A stretch of 64,000 nt of DNA, taken from the NCBI GenBank assembly GCA_963666835.2, contig CAXXGO010000006.1, positions 1,920,001 through 1,984,000 on the forward strand. Direction: 5' to 3'. Numbering within the stretch: position 1 is the stretch's first letter; each line of letters starts with the position of its first letter. Below, piece after piece: positions 864 through 7,790 of this stretch. Below the pieces are notes generated by a model that was not told where the DNA came from, made no database searches, and saw nothing but the letters and a program-made list of their open reading frames with translations. This stretch comes from Phycisphaerae bacterium. GTDB lineage: Bacteria; Planctomycetota; Phycisphaerae; UBA1845. A program made the position numbers and the translations under genes.

Positions 864-2521
864 ATGGCCAATGGTGGGAACGAACACGATTATGATCCAT
901 TCGACAGCCTGGACTCTGAAGAAGATGCGTTCGGTCAAGGCGGACCTCGCGAAGACTACGAGTTTGCACACGAAAGCCCACCGCAACAGCAGTCCTCACC
1001 CGACGAGCCCGGCTATTGTGTGGTGCAGGAGCCCACGGCGGAGAGTATGGAGCCCGTAGCCGACGCCGCGCCGGCAGCTCACTCGGCTGAAGATGAACAG
1101 CTTCTATGTGAAATCGAGAAAAGTCAGAACAAATCCCGCGGGGTGATTGCGCTGGTTCTGACGCTGCTGATTTCCGGGGCCGTGTTCGTCGTTGTGGGGA
1201 AGGCCTGGTGGTCTTGGGAGTTGGTGCTGATGTTCTTGGCGATTCTGCTGATTCACGAGTTCGGCCATTTCGTCACCATGAAGGGTCTGAAGTATCGCAA
1301 CGTGAACATGTTCTTCATCCCGCTCCTCGGAGCAGCCGTGACCGGACGTCATTACAACACTCCTGCGTGGAAGAAGGCAATGGTTGCGTTGATGGGGCCG
1401 CTCCCCAGCATCTTCCTGGCGACCGGGGTCGGAATCGCGGCGGTCGTGGCGGATATGGATTGGCTGGTATATGCATGCGTTCTGTCTTTGTTTCTCAACG
1501 GACTCAATCTTGCGCCGTTTCTTCCGTTTGACGGCGGGCACGTTTTGCACGCGGTGCTGTTCTGCAGGCACTACTACCTTGACGTGGCGTTTCGCGTCAT
1601 CACGGTCTTGATCGTACTTGCTTTCGCGGTGTTGCTCGAGGGGTCGCCGTTTCTGGTCGGCCTAGCGGTGTTTCTGGGGATGACAATCCTCATTACTCTG
1701 CGCAACGGGCGGATTGCGCGTGAGTTGAAATCTGAAGGGAGCCTCGAGTTGGCCGGCGAGGACGATCGCGTGACACCCGCGACTGCACTACGCGTCGCGC
1801 ACGCTTTGCGGGCAGGGACTAACCCCAAGATGAGCGCCAAGGCCCTAGCGCAATCTGTGCTGCAAGTAGTTGAGCAGATTAACGCTCATCCGCCTGGCGT
1901 CTTGGCCTCGATCGGCTTGCTGTTCCTTCACGGTGCCGGGCTGGGCGTTGCTTTGTTCGCGGGGTTCTTCCTGAGCATTGCCGTAAACGAAGACCTGCGG
2001 GAGAGATTCTGGGTGGCGGCCGAACCGCCGCCGCTATACGCGTATGATTGTGATGCGGTCGAGACGCGGGGTGAGCGGTACGTGCCAACCTTCGGCACCA
2101 ACTACATCATTGCGACGTTTGCCACGCCGGCTGACGCAAACACGGCTTATAAATCGGCCAAGCCGGACATCTCCGCGCAAGACCATCTCCAGAGGTTCGG
2201 TCGGACGGTGAGCATTGCGTTGAGCAGCGAATCCACGCCGGAGATGCGGAAGTCCTGGATAGACCGATGGGAGTTGGAAGCGCAGGAACTTATCGTCGAC
2301 TTACCATACAGTCCGGTGTTATTCTCGCTAGACGCGACGTTCTCTGACGCTGCATTCGCCCGTCGGGTTGACAATGAGGTTCAGGCATATCTTAAGAATG
2401 AGTTTCAGAGTGCATTAAGCCCTCCTTGGCAGCCCGATGCTCCGGTACGCGATCCTGCCGAAGGCGAAAGATACGAGGCGCGGCGGACCTGTATCGAACT
2501 ATCAAAGGCCGTTGATAAGGC
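864..2521 (+). pseudogene. Site-2 protease (peptidase M50) family membrane metalloprotease, 5' part, interrupted by IS66-type element
   Basis: GAGGAG RBS before ATG 864; HEFGH zinc motif, GP motif, NLAPFLPFDGG; several TM segments; frame broken at the TSD GATAAGGC. Confidence 0.88.
2514..2521. repeat. 8-bp target-site duplication GATAAGGC (left copy; right copy 6790-6797)
   Basis: Identical 8-mers immediately outside both terminal inverted repeats. Confidence 0.93.
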
Positions 2522-2555
2522 GTGTCCTTGCGGTGAGCGTGTATGACGCGATTTG
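2522..2555 (+). repeat. Left terminal inverted repeat of IS66-type element
   Basis: GTGTCCTTGCGGTGAGCGTGTATGACGCGATTTG. Confidence 0.92.
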
Positions 2556-2606
2556 AGCGACCCGGTATCGTCAGCCGTCGACCGATGGTGGTCTGGAGGA
2601 CGGCTG

Positions 2607-3047
2607 ATGAGATCCAGAGGGACAGGCACGCTCCCGGCTCGCCTCGAGGCGGGTCGGCGGCGTTTTGAACGTTGGCGTCGGACCCGTGAAGGCCGCTCGC
2701 GCATTCCGGATCCGCTGTGGAGTTTGGCGGTGAAGCTCTCCGCAACGTACGGGATTCACCGAACCGCCAAGACGCTGCGACTCAATCCCGACTCGCTCAA
2801 GAAACGGGTGGCATCTGCAAACGGCGATGGCTCGCTTGGGCAGAGGAAACCCCGACAGAAGACCGCCGGGCAGGAGGCAGCCACGGCTTTCGTTGAGTTG
2901 GTGTCTACTGAAGGCACTTGCCCGCCCGAGTGCATCGTCGAACTGGAGAATCCTCGCGGGGCGAAGATGCGGATCCACGCCAAAGGCAACCAAATCCCGG
3001 ACGTGGTGACGGCGGTGAGCCAGATCTTCTTCGGCGCCATGCCATGA
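2607..3047 (+). CDS. tnpA: IS66 accessory protein TnpA-like (HTH)
   Basis: GGAGG RBS; FERWRRTR...RIPDPLWSLAVKL...LRLNPDSLKKR and AFVEL...IVELE pattern; first ORF inside IRL; ATGA overlap with tnpB. Confidence 0.75.
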   Translation: MRSRGTGTLPARLEAGRRRFERWRRTREGRSRIPDPLWSLAVKLSATYGIHRTAKTLRLNPDSLKKRVASANGDGSLGQRKPRQKTAGQEAATAFVELVSTEGTCPPECIVELENPRGAKMRIHAKGNQIPDVVTAVSQIFFGAMP

Positions 3048-3406
3048 TTCAGGTCACACCCCAGATGCGCATCCTGGTGGCCGTCGAGCCCGCCGATTTT
3101 CGAAAAGGCATAGATGGCCTGGCCCGGCTGTGCAAGGAGGAGTTGAAACGCGACCCGTTTTGCGGCTGGGTGTTCGTATTCCGCAATCGACGGGCCACGG
3201 CTGTGAAGGTTTTGGCTTATGATGGGCAAGGATTCTGGTTAAGCCATAAACGTTTGTCGAGCGGGCGGTTTCGCTGGTGGCCCGTCAGTAAGACAGGGGC
3301 GAGCAAGACGCTGGAGGCGCACCAGCTGCACGTCCTCCTGTCGGCGGGCAATCCCGACGCGGCGCAGGCACCGGCGGCATGGCGGCGAGTCAACGCAGCA
3401 TCTTGA
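3044..3406 (+). CDS. tnpB: IS66 Orf2-like accessory protein TnpB
   Basis: EPADFRKGIDGL...FVFRNRR...KVLAYDGQGFWLSHKRLSSGRF, a typical IS66 TnpB signature. Confidence 0.92.
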   Translation: MIQVTPQMRILVAVEPADFRKGIDGLARLCKEELKRDPFCGWVFVFRNRRATAVKVLAYDGQGFWLSHKRLSSGRFRWWPVSKTGASKTLEAHQLHVLLSAGNPDAAQAPAAWRRVNAAS

Positions 3407-3435
3407 GAGCGAATGAAAAAACTCGGCCTTCGGGC

Positions 3436-3464
3436 TTGCGTTCTACTTTTGATCCTGCTACGCT
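3436..3464 (+). promoter_or_regulatory. Putative internal sigma70 promoter (extended -10) for DUF4338-tnpC
   Basis: TTGCGT-N17-TACGCT with TGn immediately upstream of -10; 6 nt to ATG 3471; no SD. Confidence 0.5.
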
Positions 3465-3470
3465 GCGGTC

Positions 3471-4343
3471 ATGGACGTGCTGCGGTACCGAGGCCGGGTT
3501 GTCACCGACGCCGACGTCGCCTTCATTGGTGACCTCATCAGCGCGCATCCAACCGCCACGCGGCGGGCACTGTCCCTGAAGCTGTGCGAGGCCTGGAACT
3601 GGGTCCAGCCCAACGGCGTTCTGCGGGACATGGTCTGTCGCGGATTGTTGCTGGCGTTGCATCGCGCGGGCCACATCGAGCTGCCGCCGGCGCGGAAGTC
3701 CAATCCTCTGGGGCCGCAGCGTCGGACACCTTCGCGCGCGACGCTCCGCTGTGATCCCATCGAGGGGCGACTGTCCGACATCCTTCCGCTTACCATCGCT
3801 CAGGTGCGACGCACCGGTGATGAATCGCTGTTCGACAGTCTGCTTCAGACCCACCACTATCTGGGCTACACCCAGCCGGTCGGCGAACATTTGAAGTATC
3901 TGATCTCGACAAATGGTGTTCCGGTGGCCTGCCTGGCGTGGTCCTCGGCGCCGCGGCACCTGGGTCCAAGAGACCGCTTCATCGGTTGGTCGGCCGACAG
4001 CCGGCGGAAGAACATCCGCTTCATCGCTTACAACCTCCGCTTTCTGATCCTGCCGTGGGTCGAGGTCCCTCATCTGGCCTCGCACATTTTGGGTCGCATG
4101 GCCCGGGTGTTACCTCAGGACTGGGAGCGGATCTACGGCCACCCCATCTACTTCCTGGAGACCTTCGTTGATCCCCAGAGATTCAAAGGCACCTGTTACC
4201 GCGCGGCCAACTGGTTGGTTCTGGGGCGCACCACGGGCCGGGGCAAGGACGACCTGACCCACCGGCCTAACCGGTCCATCAAAGAGGTGCTGGGCTACCC
4301 ACTCTCGAAGCATTTTCGAAAACGATTGTGCCACACCGCATGA
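3471..4343 (+). CDS. DUF4338 / Druantia DruA-like protein (Mom/GNAT-like C-terminal domain)
   Basis: HHYLGY, RDRFIGW, RFLILPWV..PHLASHIL, DW...YG..IYFLETFVDP..FKGTCYRAANW...GRTTG; N-terminal helical domain (SLKLCEAWNW..PNG). Confidence 0.85.
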   Translation: MDVLRYRGRVVTDADVAFIGDLISAHPTATRRALSLKLCEAWNWVQPNGVLRDMVCRGLLLALHRAGHIELPPARKSNPLGPQRRTPSRATLRCDPIEGRLSDILPLTIAQVRRTGDESLFDSLLQTHHYLGYTQPVGEHLKYLISTNGVPVACLAWSSAPRHLGPRDRFIGWSADSRRKNIRFIAYNLRFLILPWVEVPHLASHILGRMARVLPQDWERIYGHPIYFLETFVDPQRFKGTCYRAANWLVLGRTTGRGKDDLTHRPNRSIKEVLGYPLSKHFRKRLCHTA

Positions 4344-6058
4344 AGAAGACCATACCCATTGAGAAGATCGCTATGAAAGAACTGGAATCCATTCTGCAAC
4401 GCGCTGAGACGGCTCCGCTGGATGCAAAGGACCGCGCGAAGCTCAAGGCGGTGTTCGAATCCTACCTTCACCTGACGGACCTACTCGAGGACAAGCAGAT
4501 GACAATCAAGCGTCTACGGCAGATGCTCTTCGGCGCCGGCACCGAGAAGACCCGCGATGTGATCAAGGAGGAGGAAGACGAACCCGAGTCGCCGCCGGCG
4601 ACGGGCGGGGATTCGCGTGCCCCGCCGGAGAAGACGGGCGAAGAGGGCTCGGAACCGCAGCAGAAACGCAAAGGACATGGGCGCAACGGCGCCGACGCCT
4701 ACACCGGCGCTGAGAAGATCAGGGTGCCTCACGAATCCCTCCAGCCGGGGGATTCGTGCCCGGCGTGCAAGAAGGGCACAGTCTACCAGATGAAGAAACC
4801 CGGTGTGCTGATCCGGATTGTGGGTCAGGCTCCGGTGGCGGCCACGGTCTTCGAGCTTCAGAAGCTGCGCTGCCATCTGTGTGGCAAGGTATTCACGGCC
4901 GAGCCGCCCGAGGGAGCGGACGAGGAGAAGTACGACGCGACGGCAGCGAGTATGATCGCCCTGCTGAAGTACGGAAGTGGGTTACCCTTCAATCGATTGG
5001 AAGGCCTGCAGGGAAACCTGGGCATTCCTCTGCCGGCCTCGACCCAGTGGGACATCGTCCGCGACACCGCCGAGATCATCCAGCCGGCCTATGATGAGCT
5101 GATCCGGCAGGCTGCCCAGGGGGAGGTGCTGTACAATGACGATACCACGATGAAGATTCTGGAACTGATGGGGAAGCGGGCTACCGCCAGAGCCTGTGCC
5201 GAAGCTGAAGGCGAGGACGAGGGCGATGGCGCACCCGAGCGTGCGAAGAACGTACCCAAGCGCTCGGGGGTGTTCACCTCGGGCATCGTGTCCACCCGCG
5301 AAGGGCGCACGATCGCGCTGTTCTTCACGGGGCGGCGGCACGCTGGGGAAAACTTGGACGAGGTCCTGGCCCACAGAGCCTCGGAGCTGGGTGTGCCGAT
5401 CCAAATGTGCGACGCCCTGTCGCGTAATGCGCCCAAGGAATTCGAGACCATCCTGAGCAACTGCCTGTCCCACGGCCGGCGCCAGTTCGTCGATGTGGTG
5501 GAGAACTTCCCGGACGAGTGTCGCCACGTGCTTTTGACCCTGAGGGACGTCTACAAGCATGATGCCATCGCGCAGAAGCAGGACCTGACGTCCGAAGAGC
5601 GCCTCCGCTTCCACCAAGCTGAGAGTGGCCCGCTGATGGACGACCTCAAGGAATGGCTAACCAGGCAACTCAAGGACCACCTGGTGGAGCCGAACTCCGG
5701 TCTCGGCGAGGCTATTACCTATATGCTCAAGCACTGGGACAAGCTGACGCTCTTCTTGCGTAAGGCTGGGGCTCCGCTGGACAATAATGTTTGCGAACGA
5801 ATTCTGAAGCGGGCGATTCTTCACCGTAAGAATGCGATGTTCTTCATGAGCGAAAACGGTGCCCGCGTGGGCGATCTATTCATGAGTCTGATCCACTCCT
5901 GCCAGCTTTGCGGCGCCAATCCCTTCGATTACTTGACCGAGCTACAGAAGCACGCGGCGGAACTCACCTCCGATCCCGCGACGTGGATGCCCTGGAATTA
6001 CCGGGACGAATGGAAGAGGCGAAACGTGGACACGGAAACGGCAGTGGGATATGTCTAA
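4340..6058 (+). CDS. tnpC: IS66 family DDE transposase TnpC
   Basis: Coiled N-terminus ending LFG..TEK, CPAC/CHLC zinc ribbon, NDDT, MCD, CLSHGRRQF, LDNNVCERILK, SLIHSC...NPFDYL. Confidence 0.95.
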   Translation: MKKTIPIEKIAMKELESILQRAETAPLDAKDRAKLKAVFESYLHLTDLLEDKQMTIKRLRQMLFGAGTEKTRDVIKEEEDEPESPPATGGDSRAPPEKTGEEGSEPQQKRKGHGRNGADAYTGAEKIRVPHESLQPGDSCPACKKGTVYQMKKPGVLIRIVGQAPVAATVFELQKLRCHLCGKVFTAEPPEGADEEKYDATAASMIALLKYGSGLPFNRLEGLQGNLGIPLPASTQWDIVRDTAEIIQPAYDELIRQAAQGEVLYNDDTTMKILELMGKRATARACAEAEGEDEGDGAPERAKNVPKRSGVFTSGIVSTREGRTIALFFTGRRHAGENLDEVLAHRASELGVPIQMCDALSRNAPKEFETILSNCLSHGRRQFVDVVENFPDECRHVLLTLRDVYKHDAIAQKQDLTSEERLRFHQAESGPLMDDLKEWLTRQLKDHLVEPNSGLGEAITYMLKHWDKLTLFLRKAGAPLDNNVCERILKRAILHRKNAMFFMSENGARVGDLFMSLIHSCQLCGANPFDYLTELQKHAAELTSDPATWMPWNYRDEWKRRNVDTETAVGYV

Positions 6059-6641
6059 ACGCAGCTCGAAGAAAGCGGTCAAACCTCCCAAGATAGCGGA
6101 CCCCGGGCAACGGCTGCGCAAGGCGCTGGCCAGGCGCACGAAAGGTGAGCTGATTGATGTTCTCGTGGAATTGGCCAGTGATGATCGCGCAGTTCTCCGG
6201 CGGTTTGCGGCACGCTTCGAACTACAGGCTCCGCCCAAAGAACTCTTGGTGATGACCCGTCAAGCGATTGCCGACGCTACCGCCTTCGACGAGCGGGACG
6301 CCAATTACAACTTCAGCTACGACGACGAAGCATACCGTGAAGTGCAACAGAATCTGAACCGCTTGATCGAGCTGGGGCATCTACGGCCGGCCATGGAGTT
6401 GTCGCTGGAGCTGATGGATCAGGGAAGCTACCAGGTCGAATCGAGCGATGAGGGATTGATGACCGAGGACATCGAGGCGTGTTTCGGTACGGTCCTGAAA
6501 GCCCTCCGAAAGTGCGACCTGCCGGCAGCCGAGGTGATCGCGTGGTGCGCGAAGATGCTCAAGACTGACCGCGTGGGCTTCATCTGCGATCAGGAGCTTC
6601 ACACGCTGCGACGGCGATTCGAGGGCACGCCGTCGCCATGA
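6051..6641 (+). CDS. Hypothetical helical protein, passenger inside the IS
   Basis: 196-aa ORF overlapping tnpC stop by 8 nt, ends ~115 bp before IRR. Confidence 0.7.
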   Translation: MSKRSSKKAVKPPKIADPGQRLRKALARRTKGELIDVLVELASDDRAVLRRFAARFELQAPPKELLVMTRQAIADATAFDERDANYNFSYDDEAYREVQQNLNRLIELGHLRPAMELSLELMDQGSYQVESSDEGLMTEDIEACFGTVLKALRKCDLPAAEVIAWCAKMLKTDRVGFICDQELHTLRRRFEGTPSP

Positions 6642-6755
6642 CCCGCCGCCAATTCCCCAGGTGGATGTCGAGTCCTGAAAGCCGACCGGACCTCACATCG
6701 TGATGCCCGCCAAGCAACGGCCCGCGTCTTCCCCCCCACAACGAACCGCGCGCCG

Positions 6756-6789
6756 CAAATCGGATCATACACGCTCACCGGAAAGACAC
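6756..6789 (-). repeat. Right terminal inverted repeat of IS66-type element
   Basis: Reverse complement GTGTCTTTCCGGTGAGCGTGTATGATCCGATTTG. Confidence 0.92.
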
Positions 6790-7374
6790 GATAAGGCGAT
6801 CGACGACGATAAACGGGCGGCCTCGGCCGTACGTATTGCTGACTACGATAAGCTGCAGGAAATCAGAGACGAGATCACGCGCAGCACGGTTGCCGATCTC
6901 AAGATCTCCAATCCGGATATCGATGTTGTTACAGCAGACCTCTACGTGCGATGGACAACCGGTGAGTATGACAAGGAGGCTTATCGGTTACTGTTGGAGC
7001 GGATGGGAGGAGTGTTCATCGACTATGAGGAGTACGAGGATCCACAAGAGGGCGATAGCGACGATGACAACGATTCCGGATCTGCGAAAACGGCTGATGA
7101 TTCGCCCGGTGATTCGGATATCGACGCGGATAACGCCGACGGCGAAGCGCCCGAGGCCGACGAGTTCGACGAAGAGGATTACGATTATGCGTTGACCGCG
7201 GGCTTTGAACGATATGGGGCCAGGGGTTCGAGTTTCAGGAATAGAAAGACGGTGTCGTTTCGCGCGGTTTCATTGAACGTCGATGCGGAGGGTGCACGGG
7301 CGATTACGGACTGGCTATGTTCGCTGGGCGCGCAAGAGATAACTTATGCCTTCTATGTAGATGATTGGGAGTAG
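6790..7374 (+). pseudogene. 3' remainder of the IS-interrupted M50 protease gene
   Basis: Removing the IS and one TSD joins ...ELSKAVDKA|IDDDKRAASAV... in frame, giving a 744-aa ORF. Confidence 0.85.
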
Positions 7375-7417
7375 TGCTGCGTTAGTGACACTCCGAGAGC
7401 TTTTCGGTTCTTTAACC

Positions 7418-7654
7418 GGCAGGTCTCGTTCCTCGACCATGCCCTACCTGCTGTGCGGCATGGGCTCCTGGCCCTCCGAGGTCAGCCCGTAACGTGGTGA
7501 TGAGTTGCGTCGCATCAGTATCGTGACCGTCATGGAGCAACTTCGTTGCGTGAATGCGTCGCTGCGTGTCGGCCGGGGGCGGGTCGCTCACGCTCACCGT
7601 ACTGGTCGCGCGGGTTCCTGAATTGGCAGGTCTCGTTGCTCGACCATGCCCTAC
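7418..7654. repeat. Two direct copies of REP family A (7418-7447, 7625-7654)
   Basis: GGCAGGTCTCGTT(C/G)CTCGACCATGCCCTAC; imperfect palindrome with GTAG on the opposite strand. Confidence 0.8.
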
Positions 7655-7790
7655 CTGCTCAGAAGCTTCTTCGAGGGCTGTCGGGACGCACAACTGCGCA
7701 GATCGGATTGACTACGTTCGTTGCCGGCCGATAGAATGCACCAATTGGGTTACAGCGAAGATCACTGTCACCTGCCCAACGGAGTGACGT

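Follow-up and report, generated by a model that had tools for sequence, protein, structure and literature searches.

What does a gene of the DUF4338/DruA family do between the second and third genes of a bacterial insertion sequence (IS)? The question is raised by an IS66-family element of 4,268 bp at positions 2522-6789 of the stretch analysed here, a 64,000-nt window of the genome of a Phycisphaerae bacterium (contig CAXXGO010000006.1, 1,920,001-1,984,000); all feature coordinates below are window positions. The element carries, in this order, a tnpA-like gene, tnpB, the DUF4338/DruA gene, tnpC and a passenger. We refer to the DUF4338/DruA-family gene (3471-4343, forward strand, 290 amino acids, PF14236 E 5.8e-29) and its homologues as D, and to IS66 elements lacking it as D-less or empty. 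Judged from its predicted structure, the D protein is likely to modify adenine in DNA. That it does so as an accessory adenine-N6 modifier lodged in the tnpB-tnpC slot, probably to counter restriction, is the answer we prefer, and we hold it with about even confidence.

The DUF4338 protein has a Mom-like fold

An AlphaFold2 model of the DUF4338 protein, built from 101 homologues (pLDDT 93.4), was compared with known structures. Mom of phage Mu (8bv8) came first both in Foldseek (E 2.1e-7) and in a structure search against a representative set of 48,161 chains, where it scored Z 13.8 (rmsd 3.7, 163 residues aligned) and the next GNAT protein Z 12.5. The model consists of a winged-helix-like N-terminal domain (residues 1-78) and a Mom-like GNAT domain (residues ~100-288). 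Sequence searches of solved structures, with the single protein and with a profile, gave no match for the DUF4338 protein. The motifs HYLG and ETFVDP..GTCYRAANW, on which the initial annotation had based its suggestion of a Mom-like GNAT fold, are present and invariant or almost so across the 101 homologues; the structure searches and the conserved active site bear that suggestion out.

Alignment of the window protein with Mom, whose sequence was taken from the Mu record, pairs H129 with Mom H58, Y130 with Y59, R190 with R111, S204 with S124, D234 with D149, R237 with R151 and Y243 with Y159. Across the 101 homologues these positions are kept in 100 (H129), 92 (Y130), 100 (R190), 100 (S204), 93 (D234, as 71 D and 22 E), 93 (R237) and 98 (Y243) proteins, and across 105 fused forms in 105, 88, 104, 105, 103 (85 D and 18 E), 61 and 105, respectively. 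Mom needs these residues to move glycine from Gly-tRNA onto adenine N6 (PMC13219725), and the arginine R111 is conserved among Mom homologues and not throughout GNATs (bioRxiv 861617). Hidden Markov models also link individual homologues to Mom: P0260 matches PF25680 at 29.6 bits, above the cut-off, and P0139 matches phrog_1384 at E 2e-5. DUF4338 has already been stated to be a GNAT (PMC10853773).

The slot between tnpB and tnpC holds D, an adenine methylase or nothing

TnpC-anchored searches, blind to D, covered 58 assemblies and 80 metagenome loci, the latter anchored on the methylase-bearing locus L094. The assemblies yielded 39 loci with D, seven empty, one with a methylase and 11 that were unscorable; the corresponding figures for the metagenome loci were 60, six, two and 12. 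Altogether, 99 of the 115 scorable loci carry D, 13 are empty and three have a methylase. D is therefore typical of a cross-phylum IS66 clade, and its association with IS66 is not sporadic.

In the three exceptions (L094, L276 and L281) the D slot is filled by a DPPY-type D12 (Dam-like) adenine methylase of 222-223 amino acids, whose putative promoter, TTGACA-17-(-10)-6-ATG, has the geometry seen for D. In the TnpC tree, L094 falls within a starred clade whose 51 rows include 48 that bear D. The slot methylase is 52-53% identical to IncP-1 upf31.0 of conjugative plasmids, and members of its family immediately precede an IS66 transposase at 22 of 78 loci (15 of these were scanned, the others being identical copies, and the scan covered 59 of 105 candidate neighbours). 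A methylase scan with a single protein found no match beyond the query itself. In Mu-like prophages, non-specific adenine methylases replace mom and protect against restriction enzymes (PMC3299994). Two unrelated enzymes occupy one slot and would share adenine N6 in DNA as their target; among the indirect lines of evidence on what D acts on, this exchange is the strongest.

A separate 2,292-bp IS66-type element with GTAA ends and without tnpA or tnpB (L355:2831-5122, also L356-L361) has a D12-like methylase before its transposase; seven copies lie in one chromosome, five of them with 8-bp target-site duplications (TSDs).

The element is intact and recently mobile

The left terminal inverted repeat (2522-2555, forward) starts with GTGTCC and matches the right one (6756-6789, reverse) at 30 of 34 positions; depending on the length compared, identity is 23/26, 29/33, 30/34 or 32/40. 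This type of end is shared with TSD-bounded relatives. An 8-bp direct repeat, GATAAGGC, stands on either side, at 2514-2521 and 6790-6797. The insertion splits a host gene for an M50 (site-2) peptidase, whose 5' part (810-2521; PF02163 E 1.6e-12) is in frame with its 3' part (6798-7374), both on the forward strand. Excising the element and one repeat in silico rejoins the two into a single open frame of 762 codons, Peptidase_M50 (PF02163). The empty site itself was found: a contig of run X3, from a study other than that of X1, links 2513 to 6790. The genome holds a second copy (G000:C3:387092-391359), which is 99.6% identical, with 17 differences, none of them in the DUF4338 gene, and is bounded by a different 8-bp TSD, CTCCAAGG. 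The restored peptidase frame, the existence of the empty site and the other TSD of the second copy establish that the transposon is real and has moved recently.

Its five genes all lie on the forward strand. The first open reading frame (ORF) is open from 2553, with a likely start at the ATG at 2607 after GGAGGA, and ends at 3047. Its product has no Pfam or NCBIfam match; it gives a profile match to the TnpA of L094 (probability 82%), which itself matches NF047595 (IS66 TnpA) below the cut-off, and the ORF is also conserved among relatives. By position and profile we regard it as TnpA-like. The start of tnpB (IS66 Orf2; 3044-3406; PF05717 E 2.9e-29) overlaps the tnpA stop. TnpB and TnpC both exceed their curated cut-offs, with 101 bits against 50 for NF033819 and 206 bits against 180 for NF033517; tnpC (4340-6058; PF03050 E 4.9e-45) encodes an IS66 DDE transposase of 572 amino acids, and its ATG overlaps the DUF4338 stop in an ATGA at 4340-4343. 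The complete element with 34-bp repeats and 8-bp TSD, the gene order and the ATGA overlap had all been described correctly in the initial annotation.

The passenger (6051-6641, 196 amino acids) sits in a tail slot that varies across relatives, which have pRiA4b ORF3, a CcbP-like gene, a resolvase, an aspartyl protease, a passenger of the window type, or nothing there. It has no Pfam match and only a DUF6880-like lead; its Atlas score is 0.94 to a cluster in which 26% of members carry PF21810. Homologues of it were found in L001, L082, L083 and the D-less L142.

D and tnpC appear to share a promoter

A candidate sigma70-type promoter for D and tnpC lies behind tnpB at 3435-3464 on the forward strand, with CTTGCGTTC including the -35 box (3436-3441), a 17-nt spacer and TACGCT as the -10 (3459-3464). 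The -10 ends 6 nt before the D start codon, and 6-7 nt before it among relatives. The CTTGCGTTC box was found upstream of D in 71 of 72 distinct regions, compared with 2.6% of random 60-mers, at 35-51 nt from the start (35-38 nt in 62 of the 71); a first pattern count had given 27/72 against a shuffled mean of 4. The relatives behind these counts are 60-88% identical and hence not independent. Across them the boxes are constant while the 17-nt spacer varies, and only two of 13 D-less tnpB-tnpC spacers contain the box. A strict sigma70 consensus scan did not list this promoter. The start-stop overlap of D with tnpC, in frame with tnpC, occurs in 54 of 75 loci, so that the ATGA is not universal. 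D and tnpC thus apparently form a leaderless operon with its own promoter, as far as the sequence indicates. The RNA runs X17 and X18 gave only diverged, patchy contigs, which do not demonstrate expression.

A more distant D (37-39% identical) has a -35 box of the CTGGACAC type and accompanies a TnpC that is ~50% identical (L104, L110-L113, L123, L140, L258 and L259). This pattern suggests that the whole cassette of promoter and gene has been exchanged.

Selection maintains D, but transposition does not depend on it

The initial annotation took the place of D in the core of the element to suggest a functional component and not cargo. A need for D in the transposition core was not supported: D is absent from the 13 empty sister loci, which stand at several separate places in the TnpC tree. 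On that tree (FastTree, midpoint root) seven changes are counted, five of them forced by starred branches, and the scatter fits repeated loss of D. One D-less sister occupies 13 near-full-length places in the genome G001, in which no DruA match was found (its completeness is not given); 11 of these copies have both inverted repeats (L186-L204). None of the 11 complete copies has a TSD of its own and one cross-match of flanks was seen, so the flanks have been rearranged or misassembled; 8-bp TSDs are present in two other D-less elements, L128 and L134. Because D-less sisters exist, one of them with 11 complete copies, D is not needed for transposition or spread. Elements with D are multicopy as well, with 14 matches in G007 and eight in G006. 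The tnpC of one D-less sister (L134:1658-3501) is interrupted by a group II intron with reverse transcriptase and maturase.

D is nonetheless under purifying selection by the ratio of nonsynonymous to synonymous substitution rates (dN/dS), which is 0.13-0.19 in six full-length pairs (TnpC 0.13-0.26) and does not exceed that of TnpC in five of the six; three partial pairs gave 0.21-0.37. For 86 elements, the tree of D and that of TnpC, whose comparison the initial annotation had called for, broadly agree (Spearman 0.60): 24 of 42 strong TnpC splits recur and nine conflict. Such agreement indicates long linkage with some exchange and is not proof of function.

D also accompanies other transposases

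A scan of species genomes found at least 515 stretches coding for relatives of D among the 551 listed, and the architecture was scored on the best 80 loci. In 69 of these the order is tnpB-D-tnpC; four have D-tnpC with tnpA-tnpB inverted behind, three have D-tnpC at a contig end, two have D before another IS66 transposase, one has it before an IS4-type transposase, and in one D and tnpC are separated by an IS21. The labels of the 80 loci cover nine phyla, although labels of metagenome-assembled genomes on such short contigs can be misbinned. D lies within inverted repeats and 8-bp TSDs in 16 relative loci. The inverted variant, in which tnpA-tnpB is reversed behind tnpC, was seen in L004, L005, L019, L072, L105 and L115, of which L105 lies within inverted repeats and a TSD.

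Among 105 longer homologues (P0016-P0120), 102 have a transposase domain in Pfam, one has a helix-turn-helix (HTH) set and two have neither. The fused transposases are of the Tn5/IS4, IS701, ISAs1 and ISAzo13 types, and an IS630 fusion was also confirmed. Apparent IS66-D fusions, each with a single member, probably arose from frameshifts or from assembly and were set aside. In an even sample of the phylum, 36 of 300 other genomes have a homologue; of 29 such loci viewed with 1.5-kb flanks, a transposase or IstB is fused to the homologue or adjoins it in 22, and the other seven are mostly fragments. Only two plasmid records carry a D homologue, one copy preceding an integrase and an IS91 transposase, and the phage collection contained none. 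D is therefore not specific to IS66. Two loci have a DUF6788 gene adjoining D outside IS66 (L007:370-819 and L180:222-710), with an IS4-type transposase after D in L007, and in a single protein, P0250, the winged-HTH-GNAT module is fused to an adenylate/guanylate cyclase domain.

Proposed function and alternatives

In the reading that we prefer, the promoter behind tnpB would drive a leaderless DUF4338-tnpC message, and modifier and transposase would be made together because they share it. The DUF4338 protein would bind DNA through its N-terminal winged helix and transfer an acyl group, probably the glycyl of Gly-tRNA, to adenine N6 as Mu Mom does, a step suggested by fold and residues. DNA carrying the element, that is the element together with its vehicle, would then resist restriction on entering a new host, and we propose that its spread across phyla would therefore be favoured. 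D would accordingly be selected, yet dispensable for transposition. The recurrent capture of D by fusion to transposases of the Tn5/IS4, IS701, ISAs1, ISAzo13 and IS630 types argues for this reading. Of its parts, modification of DNA adenine is the likelier; that the modification serves anti-restriction we regard as an evenly balanced proposition.

A number of observations weigh against it. The window protein scores 13.2 bits against PF25680 (Mom), below the cut-off of 27.1; the match of its sequence profile to Mom by itself is weak, with a probability of 3% (E 0.015), and in the structure search Mom leads the other GNATs by 1.3 Z units. The pairing of R237 with Mom R151 is one residue out of register and R237 is variable in the fused forms (61/105), nor could a residue equivalent to Mom W48 be found. 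The HTH-like insertion of Mom (Mom 175-209), which is essential for activity, is missing from the window protein, where the spacer is 24 residues instead of 50; it is 21-29 residues in 86 of 101 pattern-matched homologue rows. The modelled winged-helix-like domain may provide DNA binding in place of this insertion; the structural neighbours of residues 1-78 are mostly winged helices at low Z (maximum 5.9), and Foldseek with this domain alone gave no match at E<=0.001. The methylase swap is rare: it occurs at three loci, and the branches of two of them are long and unsure. Outside IS contexts, the methylase family also lies beside conjugation, BREX and glycosylase genes. D is split in three of the eight copies in G006. 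Overexpression of Mom is lethal to E. coli (PMC7261163), which fits poorly with an enzyme that modifies DNA broadly and is expressed from a standing promoter. A test of palindrome avoidance showed no difference between elements with D and empty ones (1.012 vs 1.017, p 0.96, 95 vs 10 rows).

Toxicity of the Mom type would be spared if the enzyme acted locally, which leads to the main alternative, possible but doubtful: a self-made epigenetic switch. Host Dam tunes the transposition of IS10 and IS50, and here D would be directed to the ends or promoter of its own element by its winged helix or a fused transposase, its adenine mark tuning transposition by damping re-mobilisation, coupling it to replication or blocking insertion of the element into itself. 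The apparent co-expression of D with tnpC and the fusion of D to cis-acting Tn5-type transposases are in keeping with this, as is the -35 region, which is conserved past the hexamer (CTTGCGTTC), is mostly missing from D-less spacers and could be an operator. The high copy number and shuffled flanks of the D-less element of G001 also speak for it, but the D-bearing elements of G007 and G006 are multicopy too. Moreover, no conserved adenine motif particular to D-bearing ends was identified, those of D, empty and methylase elements looking alike, and the module moves among unrelated IS families with unrelated ends. A broader version, which we consider rather unlikely, is that ISs of at least six families carry an adenine 'writer' cassette (a winged helix and a Mom-like GNAT, swappable with a Dam-like methylase) aimed at their own ends or promoter, which would be a host-independent epigenetic switch and self-mark and would place a tRNA-derived hypermodified adenine in cellular chromosomes.

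The substrate might also not be DNA. Generic protein and small-molecule GNATs follow close behind Mom in the fold searches, and DndF-fused DUF4338 is viewed as a GNAT possibly acting on proteins (PMC10853773); the enzyme could then acylate TnpC or TnpB, or aminoacyl-tRNA as GNAT toxins do, and serve as a regulator or addiction module. We think this improbable, given that the Mom-specific R111 position is kept, D is exchanged with a DNA methylase, no conserved antitoxin gene adjoins D and the N-terminal domain is of a DNA-binding type. It is more improbable still that D is anti-phage cargo, a Druantia DruA-like gene of benefit to the host. The Pfam domain bears the name DruA, and some fused homologues give weak PADLOC DruA1 matches (E 2e-6 to 4e-3), but the window protein has none at E<=0.1, no Dru gene is among the 25 large ORFs of the window, and the genome, 92% complete, has no DUF1998/MZB match (the control matched in 8/14). 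Transposases neighbour D in 80 of the 80 nearest and 22 of the 29 phylum-sample loci, and none of the scanned D loci of relatives has Druantia partners. With no PADLOC DruA, no DruE (DUF1998) or DruBCD, and an element bounded by inverted repeats within a peptidase gene, the Druantia reading was rejected. Finally, repeated loss and occasional frameshifts are what a neutral hitch-hiker without present function would leave. This is barely credible for a gene whose dN/dS is no higher than that of TnpC in five of six full-length pairs, with an invariant active site and a conserved promoter, kept across phyla and IS families; the low dN/dS largely refutes it.

Other features of the genome

A 47-nt direct repeat (7406-7452 and 7613-7659, 89% identical, 207 nt apart) lies in the intergenic region behind the host peptidase gene. 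The remainder of the window (7791-63274) is ordinary, with Ser/Thr kinases, glycogen genes, two-component proteins, ABC transporters and a secretin. Elsewhere in the genome is a second, distant IS66 element without D (G000:C1:884090-886122; TnpB 38% and TnpC 24% identical).

Significance and comparison with known systems

Should the enzyme prove active, hypermodified adenine would be written into bacterial chromosomes by ordinary insertion sequences as well as by phages, and some IS families would have a mechanism for crossing restriction barriers between phyla or for controlling their own activity. A base modification that has gone unrecognised would be predicted in many environmental genomes, given a homologue in 36 of 300 in this phylum; many lone 'DruA/DUF4338' annotations that are not Druantia would be explained; and a small, possibly site-directed Mom-like enzyme would be on offer. 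An intact element that occurs in two copies and is polymorphic makes the proposal directly testable.

The initial annotation had called the system under-described. In the literature searched, neither this IS66 clade nor its promoter nor the methylase swap was found to have been described, while ISfinder and supplements, which lay outside the search, may list such elements. The idea is less new than its setting: Iyer et al. (2009, Cell Cycle 8:1698) reportedly predicted Mom-like proteins linked to diverse bacterial transposases, and the present element likewise is a transposable element coding for a predicted Mom-like DNA modifier. Canonical IS66 ends begin with GTAA, whereas those of this element type begin with GTGT/GTGA. 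The element shares with canonical IS66 its TnpB, TnpC, 8-bp TSD and terminal inverted repeats, has a candidate TnpA gene, and differs in its size of 4.3 kb, the predicted modifier gene and putative promoter between tnpB and tnpC, the tail passenger and, in 4 of 80 relatives, the inversion of tnpA-tnpB behind tnpC.

The Hin1523, Hia5 and Nma1821 methylases of Mu-like prophages (PMC3299994) offer the closest parallel to the swap, being adenine methylases in the mom position with an anti-restriction role; here, in contrast, the swap is within an insertion sequence and by a D12/upf31.0-like methylase. With DruA of Druantia type I the window protein shares a Pfam domain (model positions 36-225 of 297), but the element lacks DruB-E, the protein lacks a PADLOC DruA match and the context is a transposon. 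Mu Mom (8BV8; PF25680), which makes N6-carbamoylmethyl-adenine from Gly-tRNA, has the same GNAT fold, is the top structural match and agrees at seven active-site positions; it too is carried by a DDE-transposing element and is exchangeable with an adenine methylase. The window protein is 17-18% identical to Mom, has a winged-helix-like N-terminal domain and no HTH-like insertion, and its activity is predicted. Whereas mom is a late phage gene, D resides in an insertion sequence and is apparently co-transcribed with the transposase. The DUF4338 protein is thus Mom-like, yet lacks the HTH insertion, one of the features that define Mom, and it is not Druantia.

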